A stretch of DNA of 64,000 bases from Candidatus Brockarchaeota archaeon. GTDB taxonomy: Archaea; Thermoproteota; EX4484-205; JAAOZP01. Below are positions 24,213-62,504 of the stretch, one piece after another. How positions within the stretch are numbered: the stretch's first letter is position 1; each line of letters opens with the position of its first letter. The stretch lies in the NCBI GenBank assembly GCA_017601225.1, contig JAFNIX010000005.1, positions 55,831 through 119,830 of the forward strand, written 5' to 3'. The translations under genes were made by a program, and so were the position numbers. The notes under the pieces were generated by a model that was not told the DNA's origin, ran no database searches, and worked only from the letters and a program-made list of their open reading frames with translations.

Positions 24213-24218
24213 TTCAAG

Positions 24219-29729: not shown

Positions 29730-29733
29730 CTGG

Positions 29734-31215: not shown

Positions 31216-31217
31216 AA

Positions 31218-34233: not shown

Positions 34234-34234
34234 A

Positions 34235-46175: not shown

Positions 46176-46306
46176 ATTTAAAAATGGGCTGCTGTGAAAA
46201 CACGATTTTTCCCCAAGAAATACCATTAAATTGTTTAACACCGGGTTTCCACGGTCTTTTTCAACTACCGATAAAAGTTTATAAAAACGTTGCTTGAAAC
46301 AGTACT

Positions 46307-47368
46307 ATGACTAGCGGTTATAAAAAAGCATTCTGGGTTAATCCGAGACCTATTGCCCAAAATCCTGAGAAACATGTTAGGGAAATTGTGGAGATGGGTG
46401 CAGATGAAATTTTTCTGCTAAGCATAGATGGCGAAGGAGCTCTTTACCCCGCCAAGTTTTCAGTTGTTGCAAAGGGGGTTGCTGAAAGAAGCTTGATAGG
46501 AGACATTATAAGGGAGGCGAAGAGAAGTGGGTTGAAGGTTCATGCTTGGGTGGTTGCTTTAAACAAGCCGAACGATGAGCTGGCTGCTAAAAGGAAGGAC
46601 TGGTTTGTAGTCAGCAGGGAGGGGAAGAGCTGTGTTGACAACCCGCCCTACGTTGAAAGCTACAAATGGCTTTGCCCGTCGAATGACGAGGTTAAAAGCT
46701 ACTTCACTGGGACGATTCAGGAGCTTATGGAGACTTACGACTTGGACGGGGTTCATCTAGACTATATTAGGCTTCCGGATATTTTCCTCCCTGAAGCGTT
46801 AAGAGAAAGATACGGGTTGGAAAGGGAGATAGATGTATACAGGGAGAAGTATGACTTCTGCTACTGTGAAAAATGTAGAAATGGGTTTAAGAAAGAGTTT
46901 GGCATAGATCCTTTCGAAATCAGATTCGGTTCGAGAAAATGGTATGAGTGGCATGCATGGAGAGCTGAAAGGATTACTGAAATAGTTAAAAACTTTCATA
47001 GGGTTGTGAAAAAATATGATAATACTATTGAGACTTCAGCCGCTGTTTTCGCAACACCGGGATATGCGTACAGGATTGTTTTCCAAAAGTGGTGCGAATG
47101 GCCGCTTGACAGTTTCGAACCAATGATATACCATGAATACTATGGGAAAAACATAAGATGGATTGGCGAAGCAGTCATGGAAGGTGTTTCATGCGGCAAA
47201 ATGATAGTCGCCGGAATACAGTTTGAATTCCTAAGGAGCAAAAGGGATGTGGAGGAAGCCGTGAACGTAGCATTAGAAAGAGGCTCCAACGGGGTTTGCT
47301 TCTTCCTATACCCGTTGCAGCATCCTGAGCTGAAGGATGCGGTGAAAGAGGCGTTTTCAAGGTTCTAA
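46307..47368 (+). CDS. glycoside-hydrolase-like TIM-barrel protein (GHL10/PF02638-like)
   Basis: 353 aa. The DLDGVHLDYIRLP motif and overall (beta/alpha)8 pattern resemble the GHL10 family. Confidence 0.4.
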   Translation: MTSGYKKAFWVNPRPIAQNPEKHVREIVEMGADEIFLLSIDGEGALYPAKFSVVAKGVAERSLIGDIIREAKRSGLKVHAWVVALNKPNDELAAKRKDWFVVSREGKSCVDNPPYVESYKWLCPSNDEVKSYFTGTIQELMETYDLDGVHLDYIRLPDIFLPEALRERYGLEREIDVYREKYDFCYCEKCRNGFKKEFGIDPFEIRFGSRKWYEWHAWRAERITEIVKNFHRVVKKYDNTIETSAAVFATPGYAYRIVFQKWCEWPLDSFEPMIYHEYYGKNIRWIGEAVMEGVSCGKMIVAGIQFEFLRSKRDVEEAVNVALERGSNGVCFFLYPLQHPELKDAVKEAFSRF

Positions 47369-47423
47369 TACTTACTAGCCTGCAACCATCTATCAGTTGC
47401 CTATGTACAAGTTAGATTAAAAT

Positions 47424-48809
47424 ATGCTTCTCACTCGAAGGGTACTGATGAAACTCGAGGAAGCTAGACGGCTTAATACTTATGGGTTTTTCGACGTGAT
47501 AGTAGCGGGTGGCGGTACTGCTGGCGCTGTGGCTGCGATAGCTGCTGCGAGAAATGGTGTGAAAACCCTTTTGGTTGAGCAATTCGGCTTTCTAGGAGGA
47601 AGCGGGTCGGCAGCGCTAGTGTTGCCGATGATGCCGAACCACATAGGGGGGAAGCCGCTTGTCAGGGGGATAAGCTGGGAGATACAGCAGCGTCTTCTAG
47701 AAATGGGTTGTGCCGCCATCGATAAAAAGGGTAATGAGGGTTGGTTTAACCCGGAGGCCTTAAAATTCGTGTTAGAGGAAATGGTTCTGGAGGCCGGTGG
47801 AAGGATTCTCTATTTCACGCTTGTAGAGGACGTTATAATGGATGGTGATGAACTCAGGGGAATAGTGGTGGTGAACAAGTCTGGAAGACAGGCTGTTTTT
47901 TCGAAAATAGTTATAGATTCGACTGGCGACGGGGATGTTGCTGCACTAGCAGGAGCCCCCTTCGAATCCGGAAGAAAGGAGGATGGGGTTAGCCAACCGA
48001 TGTCGTTAAGATTCATGGTGGGAAACGTTAACATCGATAAACTTGCTTTTTTCCTAGTTGAAAACGACAGCAGGAGCTATGTTGACCCTCCGCTAATAGA
48101 GTTCGCAATGGTACCGGGTGGAGGATGGCCGCTTGAAAAATACTTCAAGGAGGGTGTTGAAGAAGGCATTCTGGAGGATTCAGACATAGTTTATTTTCAA
48201 GCGTTCAGCGTGCCTGGGATGCCTGGGGTCATCGCGTTCAACTGTCCAAGAATCATCGGCAACTTCAAGGGATTTAACGCGGACCATCTCACGGAGGCAG
48301 TGATACAGGGCAGGAGAAGGATAAGCAGGCTTTTCAAGTTCTTGAAGAAGAAAATACCTGGCTTCGAAAACTCCTACTTGGCTATGACTGCTCCGATGGT
48401 TGGCGTAAGGGAATCTCGAAGAATAATCGGCGAGTATGTTCTTTCTGCACAGGACTATTTTAACGCTAGGAAGTTTGAAGACGCTGTTTCGAGAAACAGG
48501 TATCCGATTGACATACATCTACCAACCAGCCGTCTGCCGGGAGAGAGAAAACTAGGCCCTGAGGAGTACCATGAAATACCTTTCAGGTCAATGATACCGT
48601 TGAAGGTCGAAAACCTGATTGTTGCATGCAGGGCTCTGTCCGCATCTTTCGAAGCCCACGGTGCGATAAGGATCCAGCCAAACATGCGGGCAATAGGGCA
48701 GGCTGCAGGAGTTGCTGCCGCCCTTTGCGTTAAAAAGGATATCAGGCCCAGGCAACTGGATGGGAAGGAGCTTAGGGAAACATTGGTTCAACAGGGCGCC
48801 TATCTCTGA
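47424..48809 (+). CDS. FAD-dependent oxidoreductase (PF12831-like)
   Basis: 461 aa. N-terminal FDVIVAGGGTAGAVAAIAAARNGVKTLLVEQ. This family often accompanies glycoside hydrolases. Confidence 0.7.
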   Translation: MLLTRRVLMKLEEARRLNTYGFFDVIVAGGGTAGAVAAIAAARNGVKTLLVEQFGFLGGSGSAALVLPMMPNHIGGKPLVRGISWEIQQRLLEMGCAAIDKKGNEGWFNPEALKFVLEEMVLEAGGRILYFTLVEDVIMDGDELRGIVVVNKSGRQAVFSKIVIDSTGDGDVAALAGAPFESGRKEDGVSQPMSLRFMVGNVNIDKLAFFLVENDSRSYVDPPLIEFAMVPGGGWPLEKYFKEGVEEGILEDSDIVYFQAFSVPGMPGVIAFNCPRIIGNFKGFNADHLTEAVIQGRRRISRLFKFLKKKIPGFENSYLAMTAPMVGVRESRRIIGEYVLSAQDYFNARKFEDAVSRNRYPIDIHLPTSRLPGERKLGPEEYHEIPFRSMIPLKVENLIVACRALSASFEAHGAIRIQPNMRAIGQAAGVAAALCVKKDIRPRQLDGKELRETLVQQGAYL

Positions 48810-48814
48810 CATTA

Positions 48815-49972
48815 TTAACTCCATCCGCAGTACTTCTTTAAAATGGTGATGAAATACTTATAGTTTTCGAGAGACACGTCGGCGGGAACAGCATGGTCGA
48901 CGCCAGGGAAATACCCTTTTCTCTTTACGAGAGGAAGAACTCTTCTATCCACTTCTTTTTTAATCATGTCCTTATCTTTAGCCAACTCTCTCTTATCTAT
49001 CCCTCCTATCATTATAAGGTTAGGATATTTTTCCCGGATCTTAACAACATCCATGCCTGCTGCAACTTCGCATGGAGATACGCCGTTAAGACCGTATTTA
49101 AGCCAGATAGGTATTAGTTGCTCAACATTTCCGTCACTATCCACTATCAGGATTTTCACGCCATGATCTCTGAAGAATCTGGCTATCTCGCCATATGCCG
49201 TTCCCATGAACTCTTCCACCGTTTTAGGTCCTATCATGGGGCCGTTCTTGTAAGCCATGTCCTCGTTTACTATCACGAAATCTAGGTCTAAATCTTCTAA
49301 AGCCCTGTGTAAAACCTTTGTTTGAAACTCAGCGCAGAAATCCATAATCTCCTTTATTAGGCCAGGGTTCTTATAGATTCCTAGCGCTATACCATTCAAA
49401 CCAACCATATCCCTGGTCCACCAAAATGGTCCTCTGATAGTAACGAATAACAGATAATCTCTGTCCCTGTGCCTTCTAACTATGGAGCTCCAATTTGCAG
49501 GGTATCTCTCGGAATCGTTAGGATCATACCGCCTCTTAATTTTCAAAAAGTCTTCGCGATCTTTGACTGGAAACTCTATCCAGCTTCTAGTCGCAAACCC
49601 GCTCCATCCGTCTTTCCAATCTTCTTGAAAGCCGATTTGAGTTATACCTAGGCTGTCAATCCAAACCCTGTGCCGTTCGTCTTCCCTTACTACCTTGTAT
49701 TCAAAGGCAGGCTTAGGACCTATGTTGATCAAACCCTGTTCTGGTTTCCAGTCGAAGCCCTCGGCTGGGAATGATGCTATGCCGACGGCTTTAACCTCAC
49801 AGTCTTTAACGCCAAGGTACTCTGCTAAATCAGCCTTTTCCGGAAGTCCCTGTTTTATCCAGTTTTTAAAAGTAGCCGGCCTAGCATTTCCCACTCCCCA
49901 AAGAGGTATTTTATCCGAGTCTTTGAAGAAAGCAACTCTAAGAAACCTCTCCTTAATCGTTAGTGACTCCAT
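48815..49972 (-). CDS. uroporphyrinogen-decarboxylase (URO-D)-like family protein
   Basis: 385 aa. The C-terminal GYFPGVDHAVPADVSLENY resembles the URO-D/MtaA C-terminal motif. This is a fold-level call only. Confidence 0.3.
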   Translation of the reverse strand: MESLTIKERFLRVAFFKDSDKIPLWGVGNARPATFKNWIKQGLPEKADLAEYLGVKDCEVKAVGIASFPAEGFDWKPEQGLINIGPKPAFEYKVVREDERHRVWIDSLGITQIGFQEDWKDGWSGFATRSWIEFPVKDREDFLKIKRRYDPNDSERYPANWSSIVRRHRDRDYLLFVTIRGPFWWTRDMVGLNGIALGIYKNPGLIKEIMDFCAEFQTKVLHRALEDLDLDFVIVNEDMAYKNGPMIGPKTVEEFMGTAYGEIARFFRDHGVKILIVDSDGNVEQLIPIWLKYGLNGVSPCEVAAGMDVVKIREKYPNLIMIGGIDKRELAKDKDMIKKEVDRRVLPLVKRKGYFPGVDHAVPADVSLENYKYFITILKKYCGWS

Positions 49973-50150
49973 CGGTAGGAAGCCGGTTTAAGCGAACCTA
50001 TAAAACCTTTTAGCAGGTTTTTACGAGTCCATAATACGATCAGGGGGTTAACAGGATGTTCGGCGTTTCTGAGTTCAGCAGGAACCTTAATCGTTACCAG
50101 CTTCATTACCGGCAAGTAAGAGGGTTCTTTCAGGATTCTGAAGGACTGAG

Positions 50151-51272
50151 CTACTTTAAGAAATTTGAGATTATGCCGCAGATTAGGGAAATGATTCCGA
50201 ATGAGAAGAACACTGTCTGATGGCTTCCAGAAAGCTCGTAAACGATGGATGAGGATAGAAGGGAAACTGTAACTGCAGCAGAATTCCATATGAAGCTTGA
50301 GCATATGCTTGACAATCTTCCACCCGTCTTCGTCTTCTCACCTATCCAACCATAAGCGTTAACGGGCACAGTGCTTACTTGAAATCCCAGTAATACGCAG
50401 AGAACCGCGAGGGTTACCGAGTTTAAGATGACGGAGCCTAGAAGAAGTCCAGCAGCACCTGATGAAAACGCAAGCACGAAGGTCTTTCTCCTCCCTAGGG
50501 TGTCCGAGATTCTTCCCCCATAAACGCTGAACAATGCTGAAACCAGGAAATATCCGCTTAAAATAACTCCTATCATAGAAGGTCCTAGTGTTGAAGCTAC
50601 AGCGCTGCTAACGGAGTTCATGATGATGCCGTATCCATAGTAGCCGATGAATATGAAGAAAGGTATCATCTTGTTTCCGCCTGTTACAAGCAAATCCCTT
50701 AGCTCGATTGTTTCAAAAGGGTTTCCAGCGTCGGGGCCTAGAAAGAGAATCGGGAGGAACGCAAGGATGCTCAGTAAAGTGGCTGCCAGGAAGATGAAGT
50801 CATAACCATATGTTTCCTGTACTCGGCTTAGCATAATTGTTCCGAAAAAGGTTCCAATCCCCGATCCGAAGAATATCATTCCAGAATTAGTTCCAAAGTC
50901 TTTCTCTTCAGAGAAATCGAGCGCAGTGGAGATTGTCGAAACCCAGTAGAACGTTGCTGTTACTCCCCAATATATCGATGATAGTATCAGCAGGAAATAC
51001 TCTCTTGTCAAGAAGACTGAGAGTGGGAATAAGACGTACCCTGTTAAGCCGAAGAGCCGTTTCTTTTCCCTTCTTATCTCTTTAAGAAAAACGTTTAGAA
51101 ATACTCCTAGAATTATCGATATGTATACTGTTGCCAAAACAAGTGAGCTCTGTGTTTCTGCGAAAGAGTTGCTAAGATAAGGTATAAGAAACATCTGTGA
51201 AGAGCCTGCTCCTAAGAATAGGAAACACGTAACAAGAGACAGGATGATTATCTCCTTTTTCATGATTCGCAC
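50151..51272 (-). CDS. MFS transporter
   Basis: 373 aa with 12 predicted TM helices. The G..SD..GRRK-like loop (GRISDTLGRRK) lies between TM2 and TM3. Confidence 0.75.
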   Translation of the reverse strand: MRIMKKEIIILSLVTCFLFLGAGSSQMFLIPYLSNSFAETQSSLVLATVYISIILGVFLNVFLKEIRREKKRLFGLTGYVLFPLSVFLTREYFLLILSSIYWGVTATFYWVSTISTALDFSEEKDFGTNSGMIFFGSGIGTFFGTIMLSRVQETYGYDFIFLAATLLSILAFLPILFLGPDAGNPFETIELRDLLVTGGNKMIPFFIFIGYYGYGIIMNSVSSAVASTLGPSMIGVILSGYFLVSALFSVYGGRISDTLGRRKTFVLAFSSGAAGLLLGSVILNSVTLAVLCVLLGFQVSTVPVNAYGWIGEKTKTGGRLSSICSSFIWNSAAVTVSLLSSSIVYELSGSHQTVFFSFGIISLICGIISNFLK

Positions 51273-51293
51273 CTTTAACGATAGCTAGCCTGC

Positions 51294-52058
51294 TTACTTA
51301 CTGCTCTTCAAGTAGTTTCTTAGCCTTTTCAATGTTTCAATCGCTGCCTTTCTCATGAATTCCATGTCGCTGCCCACGTTGACAAGTCTGAAACCCATTT
51401 CCAAATGCTTCTCCGCATTTTCCGGACTGGAGGCTATTCCTGGACAAACCGATGTACCCCTGTGGGCTTCAACTACAATCCTTATGGCGTCGAGTACTTC
51501 AGGCTCGTTTGGATAACCCAAGTGGCCTAAGGAGGCCGATAAGTCGGCTGGACCGATAATCGTACCATCGACTCCAGGAACCGATATTATTTTCCTAAGA
51601 TTCCTTATAGCATCACCGGTCTCTATTTGAACTACAACAACCACGTTTTCATTAGCCTCCCTAACGTATTTGGTGAAATCCTGGTGCCAAACTGGTCTCC
51701 TAGGACCGCAACCCCTTATTCCCTCGGGAGGATATTTACAAGCCATTACCGCTCTCCTCGCTTCGTCCTCATTATTAACCCACGGGATTATAACGCCTGT
51801 TGGCCCAAGGTCGAGGGCCCTCTTTATGTAAACAGGGTCGTTCCATGGTACTCTGACTAGGGTTGCTGCTTCAGACTTGCCCATTGCTTGAAGTATTGTC
51901 TGAACATCTTTGAAGTCTAGGGGGCAATGCTCCATGTCTATCCAGAACCAGTCGAAACCAATGGTTCCCATGATCTCTGCAACATCTGGTTCAGGGGTCT
52001 CTATTGCCACGCCTAGTAACGCGCTTTTGCTTCTCATTTTTTCCTTGAAACTAACCAT
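51294..52058 (-). CDS. HpcH/HpaI-family class II aldolase (2-keto-3-deoxy-sugar-acid aldolase, RhmA/YfaU-like)
   Basis: 254 aa. GVAIETPEPDVAEIMGTIGFDWFWIDMEH and the conserved metal ligands (E..D) of the HpcH/HpaI (beta/alpha)8 family. Confidence 0.75.
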   Translation of the reverse strand: MVSFKEKMRSKSALLGVAIETPEPDVAEIMGTIGFDWFWIDMEHCPLDFKDVQTILQAMGKSEAATLVRVPWNDPVYIKRALDLGPTGVIIPWVNNEDEARRAVMACKYPPEGIRGCGPRRPVWHQDFTKYVREANENVVVVVQIETGDAIRNLRKIISVPGVDGTIIGPADLSASLGHLGYPNEPEVLDAIRIVVEAHRGTSVCPGIASSPENAEKHLEMGFRLVNVGSDMEFMRKAAIETLKRLRNYLKSSK

Positions 52059-52404
52059 TTGTCTCCTTATGGCCGTTAATGATATTTTAAATCTTTTCTA
52101 AAAATTAGTGTACCGGATTAGATCGGCCTTTTTAATCGCTTTCAATGCCGCATGGTGAAACATTTAATAATAAATAATAAAGACTGAAGCCGGGAGTGTT
52201 ACGATTATTGGCAACCATGAAATATACGTGCTTATTGTCTGTCCGACTACCGTGAAAAAATCCGAGAGACACGGAGCCCACTACGAGGTGAAATTTTCCA
52301 CCTTAAGCTGAAAATCATTCCGGTAGGCTTATTCTACGAATAGGGGTTTAAAGCAAGCCTTTCACTATTTTAAGGGTTGATTACCGGCTTAACGCCAGGA
52401 GACG

Positions 52405-55400
52405 TTAAAAGCCTACTTTGAAACTATAGTTCCCTGATTGGACTCTGTATACCACGCAGCCCTCTTCAACACCGATCAGCTCAACCCCCTCGGATTTTTC
52501 AGCAGGCTTTCCACTCTCCGTCACGTTCTCCGGCTTAGTCGTCGGGATATACACCAGTGCTGAAGTATTTGTTGGAATAACAAGTTTTAGGTGAAATGTT
52601 TCTCCGGAGAACCGCCAGTCAACTGTGACTCTACCATGGATAGAGTCGTAACTCGCATAAGCATGTTCAAGCTCCCTCGAGGGCTTCGGTTTAATAACGA
52701 TGCGTTTAAACCCAACATCCTTAGCGCTTATTCCCCCTACGGTTGAGAAAAGCCATTCGCCGACGCTTCCGAAAGCATAGTGGTTAAACGAATTCATTCC
52801 AGGCTCATGGATTCCTTCTTCAGTCATGCTGTTCCATCGCTCCCAGATGGTAGTCGCCCCCAGCCTCACAGGGTAGAGCCAAGAGGGGAAGGTTTCCTGC
52901 AGGAGGAGCCTATAGGCCACGTCGGTCCTGCCGAACTTTGTGAGCGCCTGCATAAGGTGCCGCGTTCCAACGAATCCTGTAGAAAGGTGCCATCCCCGTT
53001 CCTCAATATCCCTAACCAGGTGCCTCAAAACTTTTTCCTCAACTTCCTCTGGAAGCAGTTTAAAATCAAGCGCTAGAGCGTAACAGGTCTGTGTCTCGCC
53101 CTTTATGCGCCCATCTGGTTTAACATATGCTTTGAGAAACGCGTCTCTAATATTGTTGAACAATTCTTCAAAACGTTTCGCATCCTCCGCCTTACCAATT
53201 TCATAAGCCATCTCAGCCATCAGCTTAACTACGTGGGCGAAATAGGCTGTTGCGATAACGTCTCTCGGCGTCTCCGGGCCGGCTGGAACCCAATCGCCAT
53301 ATCCTATTTCCGGTCTAAGAAACCCTACGCTGTTCTTCTCAAGGTATTCTATGTATCGACGCATGTTGTTGTAGTATAGTTGAATCACACGGGTGTCTCC
53401 GTAAAACCTCCAAAGCACGTAGGGCACGATTATCCCCGCATCTCCCCAGCAGGGTGTTCCGAATCCAGCTCCAGTCACGGGGGCAACATCAGGGTATGCG
53501 CCGTCTTCTCTCTGACCATCGTTCAGGTCGATGAGCCATTTTGTCATGAACGAAGAAATGTCTGCCAAATAGGCAGCTGTCCGAGAAAAAATCTGCGCGT
53601 CGCCTGTCCAGCCCTGACGCTCATCTCGCTGGGGGCAATCGGTCGGGACCTCGAAATAGTTGGCGCGTAGGCTCCAAACAATGTTTTCGAACAGTCTGTT
53701 CAAAAGTGGGTTTGAAGAGCGGAACTCCCCTGTTATCGGAATATCGGAGTGTAGGACGATGGCTGTTACCGCGTCTAGAAGGGGTCTCCCGGGGTAACCA
53801 GTTACTTCAACGTATCTAAAACCATGATAGGTGAATCTGGGTTCAAAAATTTCCTCAGAAGAGCCTTTGCAGAAATACACGTCGGTGGAACGTGCTCCTC
53901 TTAGGTTTGCGGTGTGCAGAGTACCGTCGGGATTTAGCACTTCGGAATATCGCAGCACGATCCTATCCCCGGGTTTAGCTTTTCTAACCCTTAGCCTCAC
54001 TGTGCCTGCCAGGTTTTGACCGAAATCGTATACGAAGACACCGGGACTAACCTCTCTGATCGATTTCGCGACCAGCTCCATCGTTCTTCTTATCGGCTCC
54101 CCAGGATGGGCTGTTACCTTTAAACCAATATCTATAATATCCTCAGTGGTAACCTTTCCCCAACCACTATCGTCAAACCAAGGTTCGTCCCATCCGTTGA
54201 TTTCAAGCCTCGCGTCGTAAGTCTCACCCATGTAATTATCAGCCTCTATGAACGGGCCGTAGGATGCTTTCCAAGTCTCGTCGCTAACGATTAGCTGTCT
54301 TTCTCCGTCAGCATATTCTATTTCAAGCTGTACGAGTAAGCGCGGTCCGCGGCCGAACCTGTTCCTTCTTCCCCAACCACCCTGGTAGCCGGAGTACCAC
54401 TCACTGTGAAGAATTGCGCCGATCGCGTTAACCCCCTGTTTAAGAAGGTTCGTAACCTCGTAAGTACGATAATATGCACGTCTTCGAAAGTCAGACCAAC
54501 CTGGTATGAAATAGTCTTCCGTAACGCGTTTCCCGTTTATGCGCAGCTCGCAGCTTCCTAACACGCTAACGTATAGAAATGCGCGTTTAACCGGCTTATC
54601 TACGTTAAACGATCTTCTTAAAAGCGGGAGTGGACGCGAGTAAGGAGGCTTTACTCCTAGAACACCCCATGGCGCTGTCTTGAAATCTCCCAGCTCTAAC
54701 GAGTAGGTCCATTCCTCATCTTTGAAATCAAGCCCGTTCCAGCCTTCCTCAGAGCACGTGTTAGCCTTCCAATTCTTATCAGTAACGACGATAAGCTGTT
54801 CTCCGTTTTCAAACTCTATGATTATCTTTCCGAGCAGACCTGCCGAACCACCTCGGTTGACGACCATCGCCGCGAAAACATTCTTCCCCGGCCGCAACCA
54901 TCGCGTGACTTCGATTATCTGCGGTTTTCCATTGTTCTCTCCAGTCCAAGCTCCGTTTACGAAAGCAGTGGCCCAATCGTCAGCTACCAGTAGAAACCTT
55001 CCACTAAGTATTTTCTTATCGCGCGGTAGATTTATTATACGACGAAAGTAGCGCGCGGCCACAGGGGCGTTCTTAAGCGGGTTGTCCTCATTAAACCAGA
55101 TCCACTTGCAGCCGTTAAAATTAGGATTCTCCCATTCGGCATATTCATCGTAGCCTATCCATTTAGCCTTCCAGTCATCCGGCTCTAACAACCCCATCTT
55201 CCAAAATGCCGGCTCACTCCATTCGGAGGGCATTCCATCCCTATCCCAAACACGCACCTTCCACCAGCATTCGCTTCGAGAAGAAAGGGGTTTTCCGGCA
55301 TACTCTATCTGACTCGTCCGGCCGGATTGAACTTTACCACTATCCCACAGGTCACCAAAATCATTATCCAAGTTCAGCCTAGTGCTGGAAACAATAATCT

Positions 55401-55530
55401 GATAAGCTGTTTGATACTGTCCTCTTTCAGGGGATTCGACAACCCAGCTTAACCGGGGTTTTGCGGTATCAATTCCAACTGGGTTACCACGGTACTCGCA
55501 ACGCAGCTTTCCAATCCTTAAGCTATTCAT
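52405..55530 (-). CDS. alpha-L-rhamnosidase, glycoside hydrolase family 78
   Basis: 1041 aa. The N-terminus LRCEYRGNPVGIDTAKPRLSWVV is the hallmark start of bacterial GH78 enzymes. A six-hairpin catalytic domain and C-terminal beta-sandwich follow. Confidence 0.85.
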   Translation of the reverse strand: MNSLRIGKLRCEYRGNPVGIDTAKPRLSWVVESPERGQYQTAYQIIVSSTRLNLDNDFGDLWDSGKVQSGRTSQIEYAGKPLSSRSECWWKVRVWDRDGMPSEWSEPAFWKMGLLEPDDWKAKWIGYDEYAEWENPNFNGCKWIWFNEDNPLKNAPVAARYFRRIINLPRDKKILSGRFLLVADDWATAFVNGAWTGENNGKPQIIEVTRWLRPGKNVFAAMVVNRGGSAGLLGKIIIEFENGEQLIVVTDKNWKANTCSEEGWNGLDFKDEEWTYSLELGDFKTAPWGVLGVKPPYSRPLPLLRRSFNVDKPVKRAFLYVSVLGSCELRINGKRVTEDYFIPGWSDFRRRAYYRTYEVTNLLKQGVNAIGAILHSEWYSGYQGGWGRRNRFGRGPRLLVQLEIEYADGERQLIVSDETWKASYGPFIEADNYMGETYDARLEINGWDEPWFDDSGWGKVTTEDIIDIGLKVTAHPGEPIRRTMELVAKSIREVSPGVFVYDFGQNLAGTVRLRVRKAKPGDRIVLRYSEVLNPDGTLHTANLRGARSTDVYFCKGSSEEIFEPRFTYHGFRYVEVTGYPGRPLLDAVTAIVLHSDIPITGEFRSSNPLLNRLFENIVWSLRANYFEVPTDCPQRDERQGWTGDAQIFSRTAAYLADISSFMTKWLIDLNDGQREDGAYPDVAPVTGAGFGTPCWGDAGIIVPYVLWRFYGDTRVIQLYYNNMRRYIEYLEKNSVGFLRPEIGYGDWVPAGPETPRDVIATAYFAHVVKLMAEMAYEIGKAEDAKRFEELFNNIRDAFLKAYVKPDGRIKGETQTCYALALDFKLLPEEVEEKVLRHLVRDIEERGWHLSTGFVGTRHLMQALTKFGRTDVAYRLLLQETFPSWLYPVRLGATTIWERWNSMTEEGIHEPGMNSFNHYAFGSVGEWLFSTVGGISAKDVGFKRIVIKPKPSRELEHAYASYDSIHGRVTVDWRFSGETFHLKLVIPTNTSALVYIPTTKPENVTESGKPAEKSEGVELIGVEEGCVVYRVQSGNYSFKVGF

Positions 55531-56425
55531 ATTGGTTAACCCACCTTCCTTTTGAAGACTCTTCGAAGGCTAGAGAATCATTGCTTTTTCGCGGTTCTTT
55601 TACATTTTTATTTGCCGACAGGATAAATTCGCAATAGGGGTCTCCTTTGGCTATGCACCTTGTTTCCTCGCCTTTCAAGTCTTCTCTAAAAAGGGAGCTG
55701 AAAAACCCTGAAAGGATGCCTCTGATGAAATGGCTTTGAGGCGCAGATTTTTCTTTAAACATGTCACACTCCCAGTTATCAAAAATCTTTATAACTGCTT
55801 TCTTCTCTTTTTCATCTAGGTGTACGATCTCCATCTTTGCCCATCCTAAAATAAGGGCTCTTTTCTTAAGTATTTCAACAGCACTAATCCCTTCAACTCC
55901 ATATTCTTTTCTATATGTCTCTAAAGTGTTCTTCCCGATTTCTCTCCCCTGATACCATACTATTGTCTGGACGATTTCGTCACCAAGAGATTTTCTTAGT
56001 CCAACCAGAAAGCCCTCTAAAACAGGTATTGGAAAAATAACTGCTCTAACTTTTCCCACTTGGAGGGGGAAATGAAAAGAATCTTCGTCAAACCATCCCG
56101 AGTGATCAAAAATCTTTATTTTTTTAACAACATCTATTTTCTCCATGTCTATTTCTTTCTCAATAAGCTTTTCTAAATCCGCTAGGTTCATCTTGGTGGG
56201 AGTCTCTAAGAACATTGAAACCTCGATCTCTTCCTTTTTTGATATTGATTCACTAAGGATCCCAACTAAGTTAAATTCATGCTTCTTTAAAATATTTAAA
56301 AATGAAGCTAATGCACCGCTTTTGTTAACCAGAGTTAATGAAATGAAGTAAATTCGATTTTCAGGATCCAATATCATCCGTGAAAGGTCTATTGGTTTAT
56401 ACTCGTTCTCTGTTGTCCTAGCCAA
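55523..56425 (-). CDS. ACT-domain + V4R-domain protein (putative small-molecule sensor/regulator)
   Basis: 300 aa. N-terminal ACT-like region (ISLTLVNKSGALASFLNIL). The C-terminal CIAKGDPYCEF matches the V4R CxxxGxxxC-F motif. Overlaps the GH78 start by 8 nt. Confidence 0.45.
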   Translation of the reverse strand: MARTTENEYKPIDLSRMILDPENRIYFISLTLVNKSGALASFLNILKKHEFNLVGILSESISKKEEIEVSMFLETPTKMNLADLEKLIEKEIDMEKIDVVKKIKIFDHSGWFDEDSFHFPLQVGKVRAVIFPIPVLEGFLVGLRKSLGDEIVQTIVWYQGREIGKNTLETYRKEYGVEGISAVEILKKRALILGWAKMEIVHLDEKEKKAVIKIFDNWECDMFKEKSAPQSHFIRGILSGFFSSLFREDLKGEETRCIAKGDPYCEFILSANKNVKEPRKSNDSLAFEESSKGRWVNQYE

Positions 56426-56488
56426 TTCAAGTCTATAAAGAGATTTAGAAAAACTATTTATTCTTTTCCCATAAAGGGATTTGCTGAA

Positions 56489-57523
56489 CTACTTCTCACA
56501 ATATTTTCGGCAATCCTCAATTATTTGCATTACTTTACGTACGCTTTCAGGCGTAACGCCTAAGGGAGCTCCCTCGCGTAGAGTCTTGTAAAGTTCCTCG
56601 TAAAATAGAGTTTCACTGCGCTTAGCATTCTCATCTAGAGCCCACTCCTCCTCTCTCCAAGGGATCTCTTCCCAATTGTAGCTGCGATCTGGAGTCGGCC
56701 TTGTTTCAACCTGTCTAGGAGGAAGATCCTTAGGGTCGAAATACTTCCACCTTATCGTGTTCCCGTTTCCCGAAAGACTTCCCTGAGTACCCATTATCAG
56801 CCAATAATCCTGAGGGTAGGCGCATGCGCGAGTAACCTCTATATCGACCTTTGTTGAGCCCGGCCCTCCTAAAATTATCTTAACATGGTCCTCAGCATCA
56901 CCCAGAGTTAGGGTCCTCTGCAGGTCGCAGAAAAATACTTCTACCTCCTCCCCTACAAGTTGAATCGCTTGGTCTATAAGATGGGAAGCATTATTGTTAA
57001 GTTCTCCCCCTCCAAACTTTTTCAAAGTCTGCCAATCCCAACGTCTTCCAAAGGAGTGCAAATATATTTTCACAAGCACTATGTGCCCAAGCTTACCGGA
57101 TCTTACTATTTCCTTAACTTTTAAGAAGTCTGGAGCGTATCTCTTGTTCTGAAATACCGTTAGTATTCTTCCAGTCTTCCTTGCAACCCTTATCATCTCG
57201 TCTGCTTCAGCCAGGCTTGTTGCCATCGGTTTCTCGCATACAACGTTTTTACCTGATTTCAACGCTTCTATGGTTTGAGAAGCATGAAGATAGCTTGGTG
57301 TTGCTATAACCACCAGTTCCACCTCTTCATCCATCAGGAGTGAATTGAAATCTTTGTATGCTCTGCAACCGAACCTGTTAACAGCCTCCTTTCTCCTCTC
57401 TTCAAGTGGGTCGAAAACTGCAACCACTCTATACATGCTGGAGCATTTCTCGAGTGCATTGGCATGAAGATCCCATCCGCTTCTCCCAAGCCCAGAGATC
57501 CCGACGTTCACCCGGCTACTCAT
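56489..57523 (-). CDS. Gfo/Idh/MocA-family NAD(P)-dependent oxidoreductase (sugar dehydrogenase-like)
   Basis: 344 aa. N-terminal Rossmann fold VGISGLGRSGWDLH and the EKP motif (VVCEKPMA). Confidence 0.8.
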   Translation of the reverse strand: MSSRVNVGISGLGRSGWDLHANALEKCSSMYRVVAVFDPLEERRKEAVNRFGCRAYKDFNSLLMDEEVELVVIATPSYLHASQTIEALKSGKNVVCEKPMATSLAEADEMIRVARKTGRILTVFQNKRYAPDFLKVKEIVRSGKLGHIVLVKIYLHSFGRRWDWQTLKKFGGGELNNNASHLIDQAIQLVGEEVEVFFCDLQRTLTLGDAEDHVKIILGGPGSTKVDIEVTRACAYPQDYWLIMGTQGSLSGNGNTIRWKYFDPKDLPPRQVETRPTPDRSYNWEEIPWREEEWALDENAKRSETLFYEELYKTLREGAPLGVTPESVRKVMQIIEDCRKYCEK

Positions 57524-57542
57524 TAAAGCCCCCTCCCAGTAC

Positions 57543-58301
57543 TTAGAATATCTTTAAAAGGTATTTTGCAAACTTGCAGACCCCTATTTTAGGATCTTCT
57601 TTCTCCTCATACTCTATGGAGATGAACCCATTGTAACCATTGTCTTCAAGGATCCTCTTAACCCTCTCATAGTCAACCTTCATGTTTTCAGAGATGCTCA
57701 CCTTACCATGAATGTGTACTGCATAAGGAACTGTTTTTGCAATGTCTTCATACGTGGACTCCCTGTAGTTACCCAGGTCCAAGTTAACCCTTAACCAAGG
57801 TGAACCCACGCTCTCCACAATCCTTATCACGCTGTCCGCCCTAGCCGTTATCCCTCCGTGATTCTCCAAGGCAATTACAACACCGTTTTCCTCGGCATAT
57901 TTTACACACCTCTTCAAGCCTTCTATCGTCCACATTAATGCCTGTTCCTCTGAATACCCCTCTGGCACGTAGCCACCGAAAATACGTAGAGCAGGGGCCC
58001 CAAGCTCACGGGCAATAATTGCTCCTTCCTCCACGGCCTTTATAATCCTCTCTCTTTCCAGAGGGTCCGGGTTACAGAAGTTCGTTGAGATTCCGGCGCA
58101 GGAGATGGGGAGTCCTCGTGAAAGTGCAATCCTCTTTAACTTCTTGAAATATCCTGATTCTCTTGAAGGAAGCCAGTAGAGCGTCATCTCTACTCCATCC
58201 AGACCAATTTTGTATGCTTCCTCAATGAAATCCTCGTAGCTCATTCTTCCATCCTTAAGATACTCCCTGTAAGAGTAGGCTGCACAACCGATCTTTATCA
58301 T
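57543..58301 (-). CDS. sugar phosphate isomerase/epimerase (xylose-isomerase-like TIM barrel)
   Basis: 252 aa. IKIGCAAYSY..GLDGVEM, ALENHGG and HIHGK motifs. Confidence 0.7.
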   Translation of the reverse strand: MIKIGCAAYSYREYLKDGRMSYEDFIEEAYKIGLDGVEMTLYWLPSRESGYFKKLKRIALSRGLPISCAGISTNFCNPDPLERERIIKAVEEGAIIARELGAPALRIFGGYVPEGYSEEQALMWTIEGLKRCVKYAEENGVVIALENHGGITARADSVIRIVESVGSPWLRVNLDLGNYRESTYEDIAKTVPYAVHIHGKVSISENMKVDYERVKRILEDNGYNGFISIEYEEKEDPKIGVCKFAKYLLKIF

Positions 58302-58380
58302 TCTCCATGCGTGAGTTGAAAAAGGCTATTTATGTTTTTGTCTTCTTTATCGTCTAGCACTGGAATAAAGGCCTGTTAGG

Positions 58381-59130
58381 CTAATACCCGATTTTCCTCA
58401 GGTAACTCCTGTTTTCCAACATGCTTTCGAACGGGCTCCCGGGAGTCCAGTCTTGTTCAACGACAACCCACTTTACTCCCTGCTGCGTCGTGAAGCTAAG
58501 TATGGCTGGAAAATCTATCGAGCCTTTTCCGAGCTCAGAGAATCTTCTGTTTTTCATGTCCTCATCAGATCCGTCTTTTAGATGCAGGTATACGATCCTC
58601 TCTTTATTGGTTTTGATGAATTGAAGCGGGTCTGCCCCGCCAAATTTAACCCAATACGTGTCGACGCATAGTCCGACTAACTCCGGCTCCGTGTTCTGAA
58701 TAATTATTCTTATTCCCCTTTGATTGTTAGCTATTTCATGCCCATGATTGTGGTAGCAGGTTTTAATCCCATGTTCTCTGCAGATTTTCCCAACCGTATT
58801 CAAAAACCCTGCACACTTTAAATAATCTTCCTCCGAACCTTTCCCACCTGGACCGCTAAAAGTCAAGTATTCGCCGTTAAGCTTCTCTAAACTCTTCACT
58901 GCCTGTTCAACCTGGCCGATATCTCCAATACCCATGTGTAATGCGACAAGCCTTAACCCGTTTTCAAACAGAAGCCTCTTCGTTTCCATGATGTCTTTAG
59001 AAACTATTTCCAGCGATGTTTCTATTCCCTCGTATCCTGCTTCTCTTACTTCAGAGAGAACACTTTCAAGGTTCTCAATTGGTTTCACCCCCCAGATGAT
59101 TAGTTGAGCGCCAACCCTTAGGCTACCCAT
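58381..59130 (-). CDS. sugar phosphate isomerase/epimerase (xylose-isomerase-like TIM barrel)
   Basis: 249 aa. GYEGIETS, CYHNHGHE and LHLKD motifs. Confidence 0.7.
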   Translation of the reverse strand: MGSLRVGAQLIIWGVKPIENLESVLSEVREAGYEGIETSLEIVSKDIMETKRLLFENGLRLVALHMGIGDIGQVEQAVKSLEKLNGEYLTFSGPGGKGSEEDYLKCAGFLNTVGKICREHGIKTCYHNHGHEIANNQRGIRIIIQNTEPELVGLCVDTYWVKFGGADPLQFIKTNKERIVYLHLKDGSDEDMKNRRFSELGKGSIDFPAILSFTTQQGVKWVVVEQDWTPGSPFESMLENRSYLRKIGY

Positions 59131-59213
59131 GGTTCTAATGTTTAAAGTTTAAACAATATAAATCTTTCCTAGTCTTAAAGCTTAAATAATGTTTAAGGTT
59201 TCTCCTGTCTACT

Positions 59214-60347
59214 TTGAACATTGATGTGGAAAAATGGGTCAAGAAGGCTAGTTCACTACTGGATCTTGGGAGGATTGATGAAGCAAAAAGTAGGATTGCT
59301 GCAGCATGGAACTTTAAACCAGTAGAAAGACCTCCATTAATAATTAACTGTCCTCCGCCTGAACCCTGGCCTGTCTTCAAATATTATGAAACATATTACG
59401 ATATGGATAAGATGCTTCTGTCTCAATTGGCTTCCGTGTATTCTCACGCCATCTTACAGGACGATGGCATGCCGTGTGTAAGAGCCAATTATGGCGTAGG
59501 TATAATACCGAGCGGATTCGGAAGTGACGTGATTATACAGCCCGATTCAGATCAGATGCCTTGGGTTAAAGAACCCGTTTTAAAGAAGGATCCTCCAGAT
59601 CTAGGGGAGTTGAAGGATCCTCAGTCTCGTCAAAGTTTGATGACGCGTGTTATTGAAACAGAAGAGTATTTCGTTAAAAAACTTGATGGAACCGGAATAC
59701 AAGTATACCTGTGTGACACTCAGGGACCTTTAGACATTGCATATCTTCTCAGGGGGCCGAAGCTACTAAGCGATTTCTACCGGCGTCCAGATTTCGCAAT
59801 AGAGCTCCTTAAGAGAGTTGCCGAAGTGTATGTTGAGTTCTCAGTTGAGCAGAAGAAAATCATTGGTGAGCCTCTTACCCAGGGAGTACATGGGACGCCT
59901 AACGTATGGATGGATAAAGGCGGTGTTAGGCTTTGCGAGGATGTGGCTGTGATGATGAACCCAGCACAATACAGAAAGTTCTGCATCCCTGTTAACGATT
60001 TTTCAGTCAGGCTCTTCGGTGGGGCTATGGGTCATTTCTGTTGCAGCGGGGCTTCAGACGGCAAGCAGGTTCTTGAACCAATCTTGTCGAGCGGAGCATT
60101 TAAAGCATTCTTCTTCGGAAGCCCTGCCAGGTTCTACGGTTTAAAAGAGACCGTAGAGTTGTTTCAGAGGAAGCGCGTATGCCTAATATGGACCGACGGC
60201 CCCGAGGAGGGTGAGAAACCCGAGTCTTGGGTTAGGAAGGTGTCGAATTCTCTAGAGGATAAAACTGGAGTAGTATTCTCAATGAGTGTCGGAAGCTTTA
60301 ACGTTGCACGAGAAATTCTGAACGAATGGGAAAGAGCATTCCGATAG
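59214..60347 (+). CDS. URO-D-like/methyltransferase-like TIM-barrel protein, function unknown
   Basis: 377 aa. Weak resemblance to the URO-D/MtaA fold. Low certainty. Confidence 0.25.
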   Translation: MNIDVEKWVKKASSLLDLGRIDEAKSRIAAAWNFKPVERPPLIINCPPPEPWPVFKYYETYYDMDKMLLSQLASVYSHAILQDDGMPCVRANYGVGIIPSGFGSDVIIQPDSDQMPWVKEPVLKKDPPDLGELKDPQSRQSLMTRVIETEEYFVKKLDGTGIQVYLCDTQGPLDIAYLLRGPKLLSDFYRRPDFAIELLKRVAEVYVEFSVEQKKIIGEPLTQGVHGTPNVWMDKGGVRLCEDVAVMMNPAQYRKFCIPVNDFSVRLFGGAMGHFCCSGASDGKQVLEPILSSGAFKAFFFGSPARFYGLKETVELFQRKRVCLIWTDGPEEGEKPESWVRKVSNSLEDKTGVVFSMSVGSFNVAREILNEWERAFR

Positions 60348-61913: not shown

Positions 61914-62504
61914 TTGTGTTTAACAGCCATGCGTAAAGACTCTGCTTGGGAGAGCATAATCCGCGAGGCGTACGCTGCCTCCAGAGGACTAGGGATTCCA
62001 ACTATAGGTATGGATGACGGCTACGTGCTTTATTCAACAGCCTTCCTAGTGTCTCTACGGTTTGGACGGTTGAAAGCAATGGATGCGGGTGCAGGCGCAG
62101 GGTTTTCAACAGTATGGATTGCCAGAGCCATTTTAGAATCAGGGATTGAAGGCAATGTGCACGCGGTTGAGAAGACGAGCCAGAGATTCAAGAGTCTTAA
62201 GAGTCTTGTGGCTAAGCATCATTTGGAGGGCTTGATCACGCCGGTTAACGGCGATGCGTTTGATCATGCTGGGAAAGTTGAGGAGCTAAATCTGGTCTTC
62301 ATAGATATCGAGAAGGAGCAGTACTTGGATTTTTTCCGTCTGATTAAGAGTAGGATCCCTCGCGGCGGGGTTGTGCTTGCACATAACGTTAACCACCCCT
62401 ATGGTACTGTAGAGGTTTTTCTAAAAGAAGCCTCTCAGGGGGTTTGGAGAACCATCATAGTTCCCACTCAGGCAGGAATCTCTATAAGTGTTAAGACTGG
62501 CTAG
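61914..62504 (+). CDS. class I SAM-dependent methyltransferase (O-methyltransferase family-3/COMT-like)
   Basis: 196 aa. SAM motif I AMDAGAGAGFST, acidic motif II (VFIDIEK) and an overall catechol-OMT-like layout. A TATA-like box and TGTGCAT lie just upstream. Confidence 0.65.
   Translation: MCLTAMRKDSAWESIIREAYAASRGLGIPTIGMDDGYVLYSTAFLVSLRFGRLKAMDAGAGAGFSTVWIARAILESGIEGNVHAVEKTSQRFKSLKSLVAKHHLEGLITPVNGDAFDHAGKVEELNLVFIDIEKEQYLDFFRLIKSRIPRGGVVLAHNVNHPYGTVEVFLKEASQGVWRTIIVPTQAGISISVKTG

Follow-up and report, generated by a model that had tools for sequence, protein, structure and literature searches.

The GH78 alpha-L-rhamnosidase region analysed here was, in our judgement and with fair confidence, a composite and not a dedicated pathway, formed by a single acquisition of a bacterial GH78 gene beside an older archaeal sugar unit. 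Judged from sequence, the predicted capacity for removal of rhamnose from rhamnosides is real. The neighbouring genes very probably do not form the rhamnose pathway that had been proposed for them, so the locus is fairly ordinary. In this reading, Fervidibacter-like thermophilic bacteria of the Armatimonadota would have been the source of a stand-alone CBM67-GH78 gene for a cytoplasmic enzyme. A single transfer would have brought it into the common ancestor of a small clade related to Brockarchaeota, where it directly follows the older archaeal unit TIM1-Gfo-V4R. The host block would be lineage-specific and rearrangement-prone, and would also carry the HpcH aldolase, URO-D-like, PF12831 flavoprotein and GHL10-like genes. 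Gfo may use NAD(P) to oxidise a secondary hydroxyl group in the ring of a sugar or cyclitol, and TIM1 (and TIM2) may follow with keto-sugar isomerisation, epimerisation or beta-elimination.

Gene content of the window

The window, which is the whole 64-kb stretch of DNA analysed, matched a MAG labelled 'Thermoproteota archaeon' (GCA_038874495.1), and a Candidatus Brockarchaeota MAG was among its nearest relatives. This confirmed the archaeal origin given in the initial annotation; the host was a Brockarchaeota-related MAG from a hot spring. Every open reading frame listed there was recovered in its place and with its family by Pfam and NCBIfam. Among the upstream genes, Pfam confirmed the GT2 (45426-46241, minus strand), the ROK kinase (43919-44875, minus), the GHL6/GHL10-like putative glycosidase (GHL; 46307-47368, plus) and the PF12831 FAD-dependent oxidoreductase (FADox; 47424-48809, plus). 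The 'flippase' (42393-43913) had no family match but showed about 12-13 TM-like segments. A 118-aa ORF (h118) was located at 44905-45261 (minus).

GH78 alpha-L-rhamnosidase and its origin

The GH78 gene (52405-55530, minus; 1041 aa) encoded all five rhamnosidase Pfam domains, with 421 bits for the catalytic domain, and its product aligned over the full length with SaRha78A of Streptomyces (PDB 3W5M; 961 bits, residues 1-1039). This confirmed the assignment of a GH78 enzyme in an archaeon. The score against the NCBI equivalog model was 1134 bits, under the cut-off of 1720. The RDER and TTIWE897 motifs aligned to E636 and E895 of SaRha78A, which we take to be its catalytic acid and base, and both glutamates were kept. 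The full architecture and these two glutamates suggested that the enzyme should cleave terminal alpha-L-rhamnose off glycosides imported beforehand. A sequence scan found no signal peptide and no TM segment, and the protein is cytoplasmic. The multi-domain architecture was common to SaRha78A (Streptomyces avermitilis, PDB 3W5M/3W5N), including the CBM67-like rhamnose-binding domain, which was located at aa 139-293 in the archaeal enzyme. However, the archaeal protein, a predicted rhamnosidase, comes from a thermophilic lineage of another domain, and in the alignment it had Asp at the CBM67-site position of N180.

The trees were built by neighbour-joining on corrected p-distances, not by maximum likelihood. 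In these trees the GH78s of the archaeal clade were monophyletic (100/100) and nested, also at 100/100, within a group of Armatimonadota, Poribacteria and Hadarchaeota. Without the archaeal clade sequences, the bacterial sequences formed a monophyletic group in 0/100. The nesting in bacterial Armatimonadota sequences at 100/100 argued for one inter-domain transfer, and the closest relatives outside the clade were Armatimonadota enzymes at 60-66% identity. At 73 GH78 loci outside the clade, no orthologue-level neighbour common to the clade was found; at the family level, HpcH, URO-D and MFS genes were each found at 0 of these loci, Gfo at 5 and XI-TIM at 3. A GH38 adjoined the Hadarchaeota GH78 gene. 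These results indicated that the GH78 gene probably arrived by itself, without neighbours, through transfer from bacteria. In Fervidibacter sacchari the GH78 gene was solitary and surrounded by housekeeping genes, whereas the archaeal gene was placed behind the TIM1-Gfo-V4R unit. CBM67+GH78 proteins are highly expressed in F. sacchari (PMC11535203), and thermophilic archaea, including the cultured Tardisphaera, were already reported to carry them (PMC12542729).

The TIM1-Gfo-V4R unit

TIM2 (58381-59130), TIM1 (57543-58301), Gfo (56489-57523), the V4R gene (55523-56425) and GH78, all on the minus strand, were co-directional with short gaps. The V4R gene, which lies between Gfo and GH78, had been overlooked in the initial annotation. 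It encoded an ACT + V4R protein of 300 aa (Pfam V4R 55 bits, ACT 22 bits), in which no DNA-binding domain was found and which is predicted to be small-molecule-binding. It was present in the window and in the relatives L006, L014 and L027, was absent from L004, L005, L020 and L024, and followed Gfo in L101/L102, which are loci without GH78. Its stop overlapped the GH78 start by 8 nt. Because of this overlap and the short gaps to Gfo, TIM1 and TIM2, co-transcription of GH78 is likely.

Gfo, a Gfo/Idh/MocA dehydrogenase by Pfam, had IolG as its best NCBIfam match (112 bits, cut-off 355). Its PDB matches were the uncharacterised 3E18/3FHL (about 108 bits) and DgpA2 (91 bits). It carried the motifs EKP97-99 and N177-x-x-x-H181; we take this His-type motif to be a mark of ring-carbon oxidisers. 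Xylose and L-arabinose 1-dehydrogenases also occur in the Gfo/Idh/MocA family, and Gfo could in principle act as an aldose 1-dehydrogenase. TIM1, a xylose-isomerase-like TIM barrel (Pfam AP_endonuc_2, 118 bits), weakly matched 4OVX, Art22 and the 7XRF/7BVR/7BVS/DgpC1 chains in the PDB. It was highly conserved across archaea of the Bathyarchaeia type, many of which had homologues that were 65-78% identical. TIM1 probably acts on keto-sugars, as an isomerase, epimerase or lyase. The dehydrogenase adjacent to it was Gfo in L101-L103 and a Zn-ADH in L104. TIM2, an IolE-like xylose-isomerase-fold protein (NCBIfam IolE 85 bits, cut-off 290), matched PDB 8TCS/8TCD (59 bits) and IolE 3CNY (47 bits). 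Its family was narrow and archaeal, with distant members beside RpiA, between GPI and PfkB, or alone, and it was absent from the L101/L102 locus.

The likeness of the three proteins to characterised enzymes was weak, at 25-35% identity and far under curated cut-offs. The pattern of matches suggested that the substrate of Gfo and TIM1 (and TIM2) is a sugar or cyclitol, whose ring would be oxidised before keto-sugar chemistry follows; such chemistry would not be specific to rhamnose. The same pairing of Gfo and xylose-isomerase-fold proteins in adjacent genes is found in YcjS/YcjQ/YcjR, DgpA/DgpBC, LgdA/LgdB, the AL/BT 3-keto-glycoside lyase cluster and IolG/IolE/IolI, and a Zn-ADH can take the place of the partner dehydrogenase, as YcjQ and IolM do and as in L104. 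However, the archaeal scores were low, also against levoglucosan dehydrogenase (LGDH; 78 bits, cut-off 650), and the remaining pathway genes of these systems were missing at the archaeal locus. YcjS/YcjQ/YcjR (PMC11543891) is a comparable dehydrogenase and xylose-isomerase-fold system.

History of the locus across relatives

The Gfo-TIM1 pair was also found without GH78, at identities of 67-77% and 66-67%, and it is a conserved archaeal pair older than the arrival of GH78. In a sister lineage (L101/L102) the order was TIM1-Gfo-V4R, about 80 nt, and then GT2-h118-ROK-p506-rSAM, at 66-77% identity. In place of these 80 nt, the window had 9.3 kb carrying GH78, the aldolase, MFS, UROD1, FADox and GHL, the last two forming the far end. 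Since the sister lineage joins TIM1-Gfo-V4R directly to GT2-ROK, the 9.3 kb are lineage-specific, and ROK, h118 and GT2 are the ancestral flank. GHL and FADox were 89-96% identical within the clade and missing at the L101/L102 site.

In L107/L108 the order ROK-GT2-GHL-FADox-UROD1-Ald-V4R-Gfo-TIM1-TIM2-UROD2 was kept and GH78 was gone, leaving a relic of 18 aa (83% identity, E 2e-4). These loci nested in the GH78-bearing clade (200/200), and this position together with the 18-codon relic showed that GH78 was deleted there. In L020/L151, which may come from one population or the same reads, the aldolase was a pseudogene and GH78 was intact. The decay of GH78 and of the aldolase is thus reciprocal. 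The GH78-aldolase slot of L004 held other cargo, namely an FMN reductase, BNR_2 and an uncharacterised protein. The cluster order was conserved in at least nine assemblies, and this conservation, with co-directional GH78, Gfo, TIM1 and TIM2, could mark a real functional link.

HpcH-family aldolase and adjacent genes

The HpcH/HpaI aldolase (51294-52058, minus; Pfam 147 bits) scored 217 bits against HpaI, 215 against GarL and 142 against RhmA in NCBIfam, each under its cut-off; RhmA sits in the same Pfam family. PDB matches were HpaI (181 bits), GarL (160) and YfaU (135), and identities to the E. coli proteins were 40% for HpaI, 36% for GarL and 33% for RhmA. Residues D42, H45, R70, E149 and D175 were conserved, which is consistent with a catalytically intact class II pyruvate-dependent enzyme of an archaeal clade. 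In the tree, it branched outside the clade of E. coli RhmA/HpaI/GarL. It was therefore not the RhmA (KDR aldolase) orthologue that had been suggested, RhmA being the weakest of the three references. It did not fall inside an HpaI clade either, so the grouping with HpaI-type aldolases that the initial annotation had named as a refutation was, strictly, not seen. It is best regarded as a generic pyruvate aldolase whose substrate is not readable from sequence. The gene was solitary outside the Brockarchaeota-related clade, and among the six GTDB relatives retaining it, five (L005, L006, L020, L024 and L027) had it in convergent orientation to GH78.

The MFS permease gene (50151-51272, minus; Pfam MFS_1 86 bits) started 21 nt downstream of the aldolase. 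It was found only in the window and L004, was missing in 5/6 GTDB relatives covering the region, and showed no particular resemblance to either YfaV or GarP. UROD1 (48815-49972, minus; Pfam URO-D 52 bits), a divergent URO-D-like protein, reached 31 bits or less against MtaA models in NCBIfam (cut-off 400) and had no PDB relative. It was kept beside the aldolase in L108, which has no GH78.

Alternative explanations

The initial annotation had proposed a dedicated non-phosphorylative L-rhamnose pathway. GH78 would free rhamnose, Gfo would form rhamnonolactone, an unrecognised lactonase and dehydratase (TIM-barrel or URO-D-like) would yield 2-keto-3-deoxy-L-rhamnonate, and the HpcH aldolase would split this into pyruvate and L-lactaldehyde. 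GH78 and the aldolase adjoin in most clade members, and the locus shares with E. coli rhmRTDA (yfaXWVU; L-rhamnonate dehydratase and KDR aldolase) the aldolase family, its conserved catalytic residues and an MFS gene, which follows rhmA too. However, hpaI and garL likewise have MFS neighbours, the archaeal MFS was unrelated to YfaV, and neither a RhmD homologue nor an IclR-type regulator was present. The annotation's statement that no dehydratase or lactonase is recognisable held across the whole window, where no RhaA/B/D genes were found. RhmD-, GarD- or UxuA-type dehydratase homologues were found neither there nor in the vicinity of the aldolase at 50 independent loci, and we know of no XI-fold TIM barrel acting as an aldonic acid dehydratase. 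In L103 an Amidohydro_2 gene precedes TIM1-Gfo, and this family presumably includes sugar lactonases, but the protein matched no curated lactonase model. The reciprocal decay of GH78 and the aldolase, their convergent orientation in five relatives, the position of the aldolase outside the RhmA/HpaI/GarL clade, the His-type motif of Gfo and the presence of Gfo-TIM1 before and without GH78 also argued against this pathway, which we consider very unlikely. Catabolism of L-rhamnose after its release, if any, would be encoded outside the window. It is hardly credible that the aldolase serves aromatic (homoprotocatechuate) catabolism as an HpaI, at a position unrelated to sugars. HpaI was its top-scoring characterised relative and the nearest reference in 96/100 bootstraps, but HpaI was closer to RhmA (56% identity) than to the archaeal aldolase, and HpaH, HpaG, HpaE and HpaD homologues were found in 0/50 loci. 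In addition, the host most likely lives by anaerobic fermentation, with no ring-cleavage dioxygenases in view.

An operon for rhamnose-capped glycosides is also unlikely. GH78 would uncap the glycoside, Gfo would oxidise C3, and TIM1/TIM2 would catalyse 1,2-elimination plus hydration, on the model of the oxidation-elimination-hydration route known for gut bacteria, C-glycosides and levoglucosan. The tight co-directional spacing from TIM2 to GH78 is consistent with it, as are the PDB neighbours DgpA2/DgpA (Gfo), DgpC1 and related AP_endonuc_2 chains (TIM1) and the 8TC* series (TIM2). 'Sugar phosphate isomerases' act as 3-keto-glucoside lyases beside Gfo/Idh/MocA enzymes (10.1101/2024.03.25.586180), which gives a precedent. 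However, the NCBIfam matches to levoglucosan dehydrogenase and BT_2158/BT_2159 were far under the cut-offs (78 vs 650 and 49 vs 750 bits), no DUF1080-type partner was found, and TIM2 relatives adjoin sugar-phosphate genes, not Gfo. The module also predates GH78 and persists unchanged after its loss.

At the far side of TIM2, UROD2 (59214-60347, plus) was a very divergent member of the URO-D/MtaA superfamily (Pfam URO-D 27 bits, cut-off 23.9), with no NCBIfam match and no PDB relative. It was transcribed divergently from TIM2 and showed 84-89% identity in the clade.

Organization of the GH78 locus

ORF listing and profile searches recovered every gene named in the initial annotation at its annotated position. 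On the minus strand, these were a URO-D-like gene (UROD1, 48815-49972), an MFS permease (50151-51272), an HpcH/HpaI aldolase (51294-52058), the 1041-aa GH78 protein (52405-55530), a Gfo/Idh/MocA dehydrogenase (Gfo, 56489-57523), and two xylose-isomerase (XI)-fold proteins, TIM1 (57543-58301) and TIM2 (58381-59130). A second, very weak URO-D-like gene (UROD2, 59214-60347) was located on the plus strand. The initial annotation had missed a 300-aa ACT+V4R gene (V4R, 55523-56425, minus strand), with an 8-nt overlap between its end and the start of GH78. The other minus-strand gaps were 178 nt (UROD1 to MFS), 21 nt (MFS to aldolase), 346 nt (aldolase to GH78), 63 nt (V4R to Gfo), 19 nt (Gfo to TIM1), and 79 nt (TIM1 to TIM2). 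The window matched contig JAVZCH010000012.1 of the MAG GCA_038874495.1 ('Thermoproteota archaeon'), and a Candidatus Brockarchaeota MAG was among its closest relatives. Searches for tRNAs and Rfam families in the window gave no hits.

Identity and origin of the GH78 rhamnosidase

The GH78 assignment was borne out by all five Pfam rhamnosidase domains, each above its cut-off (Ig_Rha78A_N, Bac_rhamnosid_N, Bac_rhamnosid, Bac_rhamnosid6H with 421 bits, and Bac_rhamnosid_C), and by a full-length alignment of residues 1-1039 with SaRha78A of Streptomyces avermitilis (PDB 3W5M, 961 bits). The Pfam architecture was multi-domain and included the (alpha/alpha)6 catalytic domain. In the phmmer alignment, 'RDER' and 'TTIWE897' fell on SaRha78A positions counted as E636 and E895, which we take to be the catalytic general acid ('RDER') and base ('TT(M/I)WE'). 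The score against the NCBIfam equivalog NF041573 was 1134.6 bits and did not reach the cut-off of 1720, which pointed to membership at the level of the GH78 family and not to the Streptomyces-type equivalog. Residues 139-293 matched rhamnose-binding lectin/CBM67-type domains. Since neither a signal peptide nor a membrane segment was found in GH78, the enzyme must act on substrates imported beforehand. CBM67+GH78 enzymes have already been reported from the cultured thermophilic archaeon Tardisphaera (PMC12542729), so an archaeal GH78 is not unprecedented, and those of Fervidibacter sacchari are highly expressed (PMC11535203). The founding Brockarchaeota paper mentioned neither GH78 nor rhamnose (PMC8065059).

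GH78 relatives were compared across 80 loci from GTDB genomes. The nearest belonged to seven Brockarchaeota-like archaeal species (74-78% identity), followed by Fervidibacter and other Armatimonadota (60-66%), then by Poribacteria, Hadarchaeota, and Planctomycetota, and then by many bacteria at 36-42%. By neighbour-joining, the archaeal sequences formed a monophyletic clade (100/100 bootstraps) that nested in an Armatimonadota/Poribacteria/Hadarchaeota group (100/100); the bacterial members were monophyletic without it in 0/100. In the 73 loci outside this clade, no GH78 neighbour was orthologous to one in the window. At the family level, counts within 10 kb of the gene in these 73 loci were 0 each for HpcH, URO-D, and MFS, five for Gfo, and three for XI-fold TIM barrels. 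In F. sacchari, the gene was surrounded by housekeeping genes such as MetRS and DXR; the Hadarchaeota gene adjoined a GH38. The simplest reading of these results was a single-gene transfer of GH78 from thermophilic bacteria. From its sequence, GH78 is predicted to confer a real capacity for rhamnoside hydrolysis, acquired from bacteria.

Evolutionary states of the locus

The genes around GH78 formed an archaeal sugar cluster that was older and could be separated from it in evolution, and the locus was a composite with three visible evolutionary states. The first was seen in two sister-lineage loci (L101/L102), where TIM1-Gfo-V4R was followed, after about 80 nt, by GT2-h118-ROK-p506-rSAM (h118 is a 118-aa ORF) at about 66-77% amino-acid identity to the window. 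GH78, the aldolase, the MFS permease, UROD1, a PF12831 flavoprotein (FADox), a GHL6/GHL10-like putative glycosidase (GHL), TIM2, and UROD2 were all absent from L101/L102, although the window's flanks were present. Since these flanks were joined there without intervening genes, 46242-55522 of the window (9.3 kb) was lineage-specific.

The second state was seen in two loci from separate metagenomes (L107/L108). The series ROK-GT2-GHL-FADox-UROD1-aldolase-V4R-Gfo-TIM1-TIM2-UROD2 was complete, and GH78 was missing. A relic of GH78 was found exactly between the aldolase and V4R (L108 8783-8836, minus strand; L107 1288-1341). It covered 18 codons of the N-terminus (residues 42-59) and was 83% identical (E 2e-4). 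In a concatenated tree of Gfo, TIM1, GT2, and ROK rooted on L101, this GH78-less genome nested within the GH78-bearing clade in 200/200 bootstraps. L107/L108 represented a secondary loss of GH78 with every neighbour kept.

In the third state, that of the window and its relatives, GH78 was present. The aldolase was convergent with GH78 in L005, L006, L020, L024, and L027; only in the window and L004 was it co-directional with GH78 and followed by MFS. Between GH78 and the aldolase lay a variable cargo site. In the case of L004 (13194-16560), it was occupied by genes for an FMN reductase, a sialidase-like beta-propeller of the BNR_2 family, and an unknown protein of 478 aa, and given what they encode, these extra genes were ruled out as rhamnose catabolism. 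In L020 and L151, the aldolase was a pseudogene with an in-frame stop and a frameshift (L020 13229-13949, minus strand; L151 7995-8715, plus strand; the two assemblies were 100% identical in DNA there), and the adjacent GH78 was intact. In L027, GH78 itself was frameshifted. Across the clade, GH78, the aldolase, and UROD1 showed 72-81% identity, and the other cluster genes 81-96%. The reciprocal decay and rearrangement argued against an obligate coupling of the rhamnosidase and the aldolase. The locus provided a clear-cut instance of the passage of a carbohydrate-active enzyme gene from bacteria into hot-spring archaea, in which the empty site, the filled site, the secondary loss with a relic, and the partner pseudogene were all visible. 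It also showed that, within a narrow clade, the adjacency of genes says little about whether they belong to one pathway.

Substrate of the aldolase

The aldolase had been proposed to be an RhmA-like 2-keto-3-deoxy-L-rhamnonate (KDR) aldolase. Its place in the HpcH/HpaI family held. The metal-binding and catalytic residues D42, H45, R70, E149, and D175 (HpaI numbering) were kept, and all five were invariant in 120 aligned sequences, so a functional class II pyruvate aldolase was predicted. The aldolase was not an RhmA orthologue. HpaI (NCBIfam TIGR02311, 217 bits, cut-off 369; PDB, 181 bits) and GarL (215 bits in NCBIfam, below the curated cut-off; 160 bits in PDB) outscored RhmA (NF007521, 141.6 bits, cut-off 441; PDB, 135 bits), and all three scores were under the curated cut-offs. 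The reference RhmA, HpaI, and GarL sequences from E. coli genomes formed their own clade with 44-56% mutual identity. The window aldolase and its 116 nearest relatives fell outside it, with identities of 33% to RhmA, 40% to HpaI, and 36% to GarL. Because of this position and the sub-cut-off scores, no substrate was assigned by homology; an activity on KDR is possible. A grouping with HpaI, which the initial annotation had named as contrary to its proposal, was strictly not found, since the aldolase was outside the HpaI clade. HpaI of aromatic catabolism was rejected as its identity on this position, on the sub-cut-off score, and on the lack of HpaH, HpaG, HpaE, or HpaD homologues across 50 aldolase loci. 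The flanks of these 50 loci also contained no homologues of RhmD, GarD, or UxuA (E<=1e-6).

The nearest relatives of the aldolase were archaeal, which means that it did not come in together with GH78. Beyond the clade, it was solitary both in three Bathyarchaeia contexts and in 43 additional metagenomic loci that had flanks of 4 kb or more. The aldolase-MFS layout resembled rhmA-yfaV of E. coli. This analogy was uninformative, because garL-garP and hpaI-hpaX are arranged alike and the window MFS was unrelated to YfaV or GarP. The 'RhmA' names given by JGI to homologues were discarded, as the name is presumably a generic COG3836 label. For annotation, the label RhmA/KDR aldolase is unsuitable for this enzyme. 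A homologue 80% identical to the window aldolase (P0004) was located on a 6.7-kb contig of a MAG labelled 'Candidatus Jordarchaeales' (Asgard), which reflected either mis-binning or recent transfer.

The TIM1-Gfo pair

TIM1 was strongly conserved, with 65-78% identity across many Bathyarchaeia. It was followed by Gfo in L101-L103, of which L101 and L102 lacked GH78; in L104, the next gene encoded an IolM-like Zn-ADH. As a pair, Gfo and TIM1 were conserved to 66-67% identity. The pair was older than GH78 in the locus and independent of it. It is widespread in Bathyarchaeia and Brockarchaeota and is an uncharacterised and probably important part of sugar metabolism. TIM2 belonged to a narrow archaeal family. 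Its more distant members were found on their own, next to ribose-5-phosphate isomerase, or flanked by a cupin-type GPI on one side and a PfkB kinase on the other. The XI-fold family was expanded in this genome; with four such genes in 64 kb, the two near GH78 were unremarkable in themselves. Further XI-like TIM-barrel genes were located at 13293-14138 and 17839-18699 (both minus strand). In a more distant archaeal MAG (L103 3881-6938, plus strand), TIM1-Gfo was directly preceded by genes for a GHL6/GHL10 protein of 683 aa and an Amidohydro_2 protein. The latter, considered as a possible lactonase, matched no curated family.

The Gfo motifs were EKP97-99 and N177-x-x-x-H181. We take N-x-x-x-H to be the His type of inositol and 3-keto-sugar dehydrogenases, as opposed to the Tyr type of GFOR. 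Among NCBIfam and PDB entries, Gfo matched IolG, YvaA, and DgpA-like proteins best (DgpA2, 91 bits). The best characterised neighbours were weak, with 112.5 bits for Gfo against IolG (cut-off 355) and 85.3 for TIM2 against IolE (290). Thus, the IolG and IolE equivalog cut-offs of myo-inositol catabolism were not reached, and no IolD/B/C/J/A-type family was found in the 64-kb window. TIM2 matched its PDB neighbours 8TCS/8TCD with 59 bits; from the molecule names, we infer that the 8TC*/8TD* entries are tied to the Nasseri/Withers study. Adjacent Gfo and XI-fold genes are also found in the oxidation-elimination 3-keto-glycoside systems (DgpA/BC, LgdA/B, AL/BT, YcjS/R). However, the window proteins did not reach the curated thresholds of these families (LevoglcsnDh, 77.8 vs 650; BT_2158, 48.9 vs 750; BT_2159, 48 vs 650). 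In known systems with this pairing of folds, a keto-sugar is made by a dehydrogenase and is then isomerised, epimerised, or eliminated by an XI-fold enzyme; the AL/BT cluster (10.1101/2024.03.25.586180) and YcjS/YcjQ/YcjR (PMC11543891) are examples. The likeness of the window Gfo and TIM proteins to these systems is best regarded as analogy and not as membership.

Assessment of a rhamnose pathway

A non-phosphorylative L-rhamnose pathway had been proposed for 48815-60347, with the remark that no rhamnonate dehydratase or lactonase was recognisable. The remark held for every ORF family in the 64-kb window, in which RhaA/B/D, an SDR-type rhamnose dehydrogenase (LRA1), a lactonase, and an enolase- or IlvD-type dehydratase were all absent. 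The sole window candidate for an L-rhamnose 1-dehydrogenase was Gfo, with its IolG, YvaA, and DgpA-like matches and N-x-x-x-H motif. The glycosidase and the catabolic genes were not inherited together, since L107/L108 kept the aldolase and Gfo without GH78 and L020/L151 kept GH78 with an aldolase pseudogene. With an aldolase that was not an RhmA orthologue, no lactonase or dehydratase in 64 kb, and reciprocal loss of GH78 and aldolase, the pathway was unsupported at this locus and we consider it very unlikely. An archaeal oxidative rhamnose pathway should not be deduced from this locus. An unlikely reading, offered as speculation, is that UROD2, TIM2-TIM1-Gfo-V4R, the aldolase, UROD1, and the PF12831 flavoprotein-GHL10 genes, a conserved archaeal set kept with or without GH78, would form an undescribed cytoplasmic route. 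A ring carbon of a deoxy-sugar, glycoside, or cyclitol would be oxidized, opening or elimination would be performed by the XI-fold proteins, and an aldol cleavage would release pyruvate. The bacterial GH78 would then be an extra feeder recruited by the clade.

Of more interest in what remained of the locus were the two orphan URO-D-like genes and the TIM1-Gfo module, which is widespread and uncharacterised. UROD1 and UROD2 were very divergent members of the URO-D/MtaA superfamily, and neither had a solved-structure relative by sequence. UROD2 carried an H264-F-C266-C267 stretch and C323. The idea of a Zn motif (H264-x-C266) was dropped, as there was no solved-structure relative for alignment. 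Brockarchaeota were described without a recognisable MtaA, and an undescribed methyltransferase was postulated (De Anda et al. 2021). In a variant reading, the URO-D-like proteins may be candidates for these 'missing' MtaA-type methyltransferases.

Other features of the window

A 941-aa ORF (10471-13296, plus strand) matched no Pfam family at E<=1e-5. A region of about 2 kb (23917-25871) held small ORFs alone (<=102 aa), with no repeat array, tRNA, RNA gene, or Rfam match. In a purine biosynthesis cluster (26935-35032, plus strand), two genes for PurF-like amidophosphoribosyltransferases lay in tandem and overlapped (26935-28419 and 28416-29729); PurD, PurL, and PurQ came after them. A second, short Gfo/Idh/MocA-type protein (289 aa; 62501-63370, minus strand), in which the N-terminal Rossmann domain alone was recognised, showed 85-91% identity across the clade.
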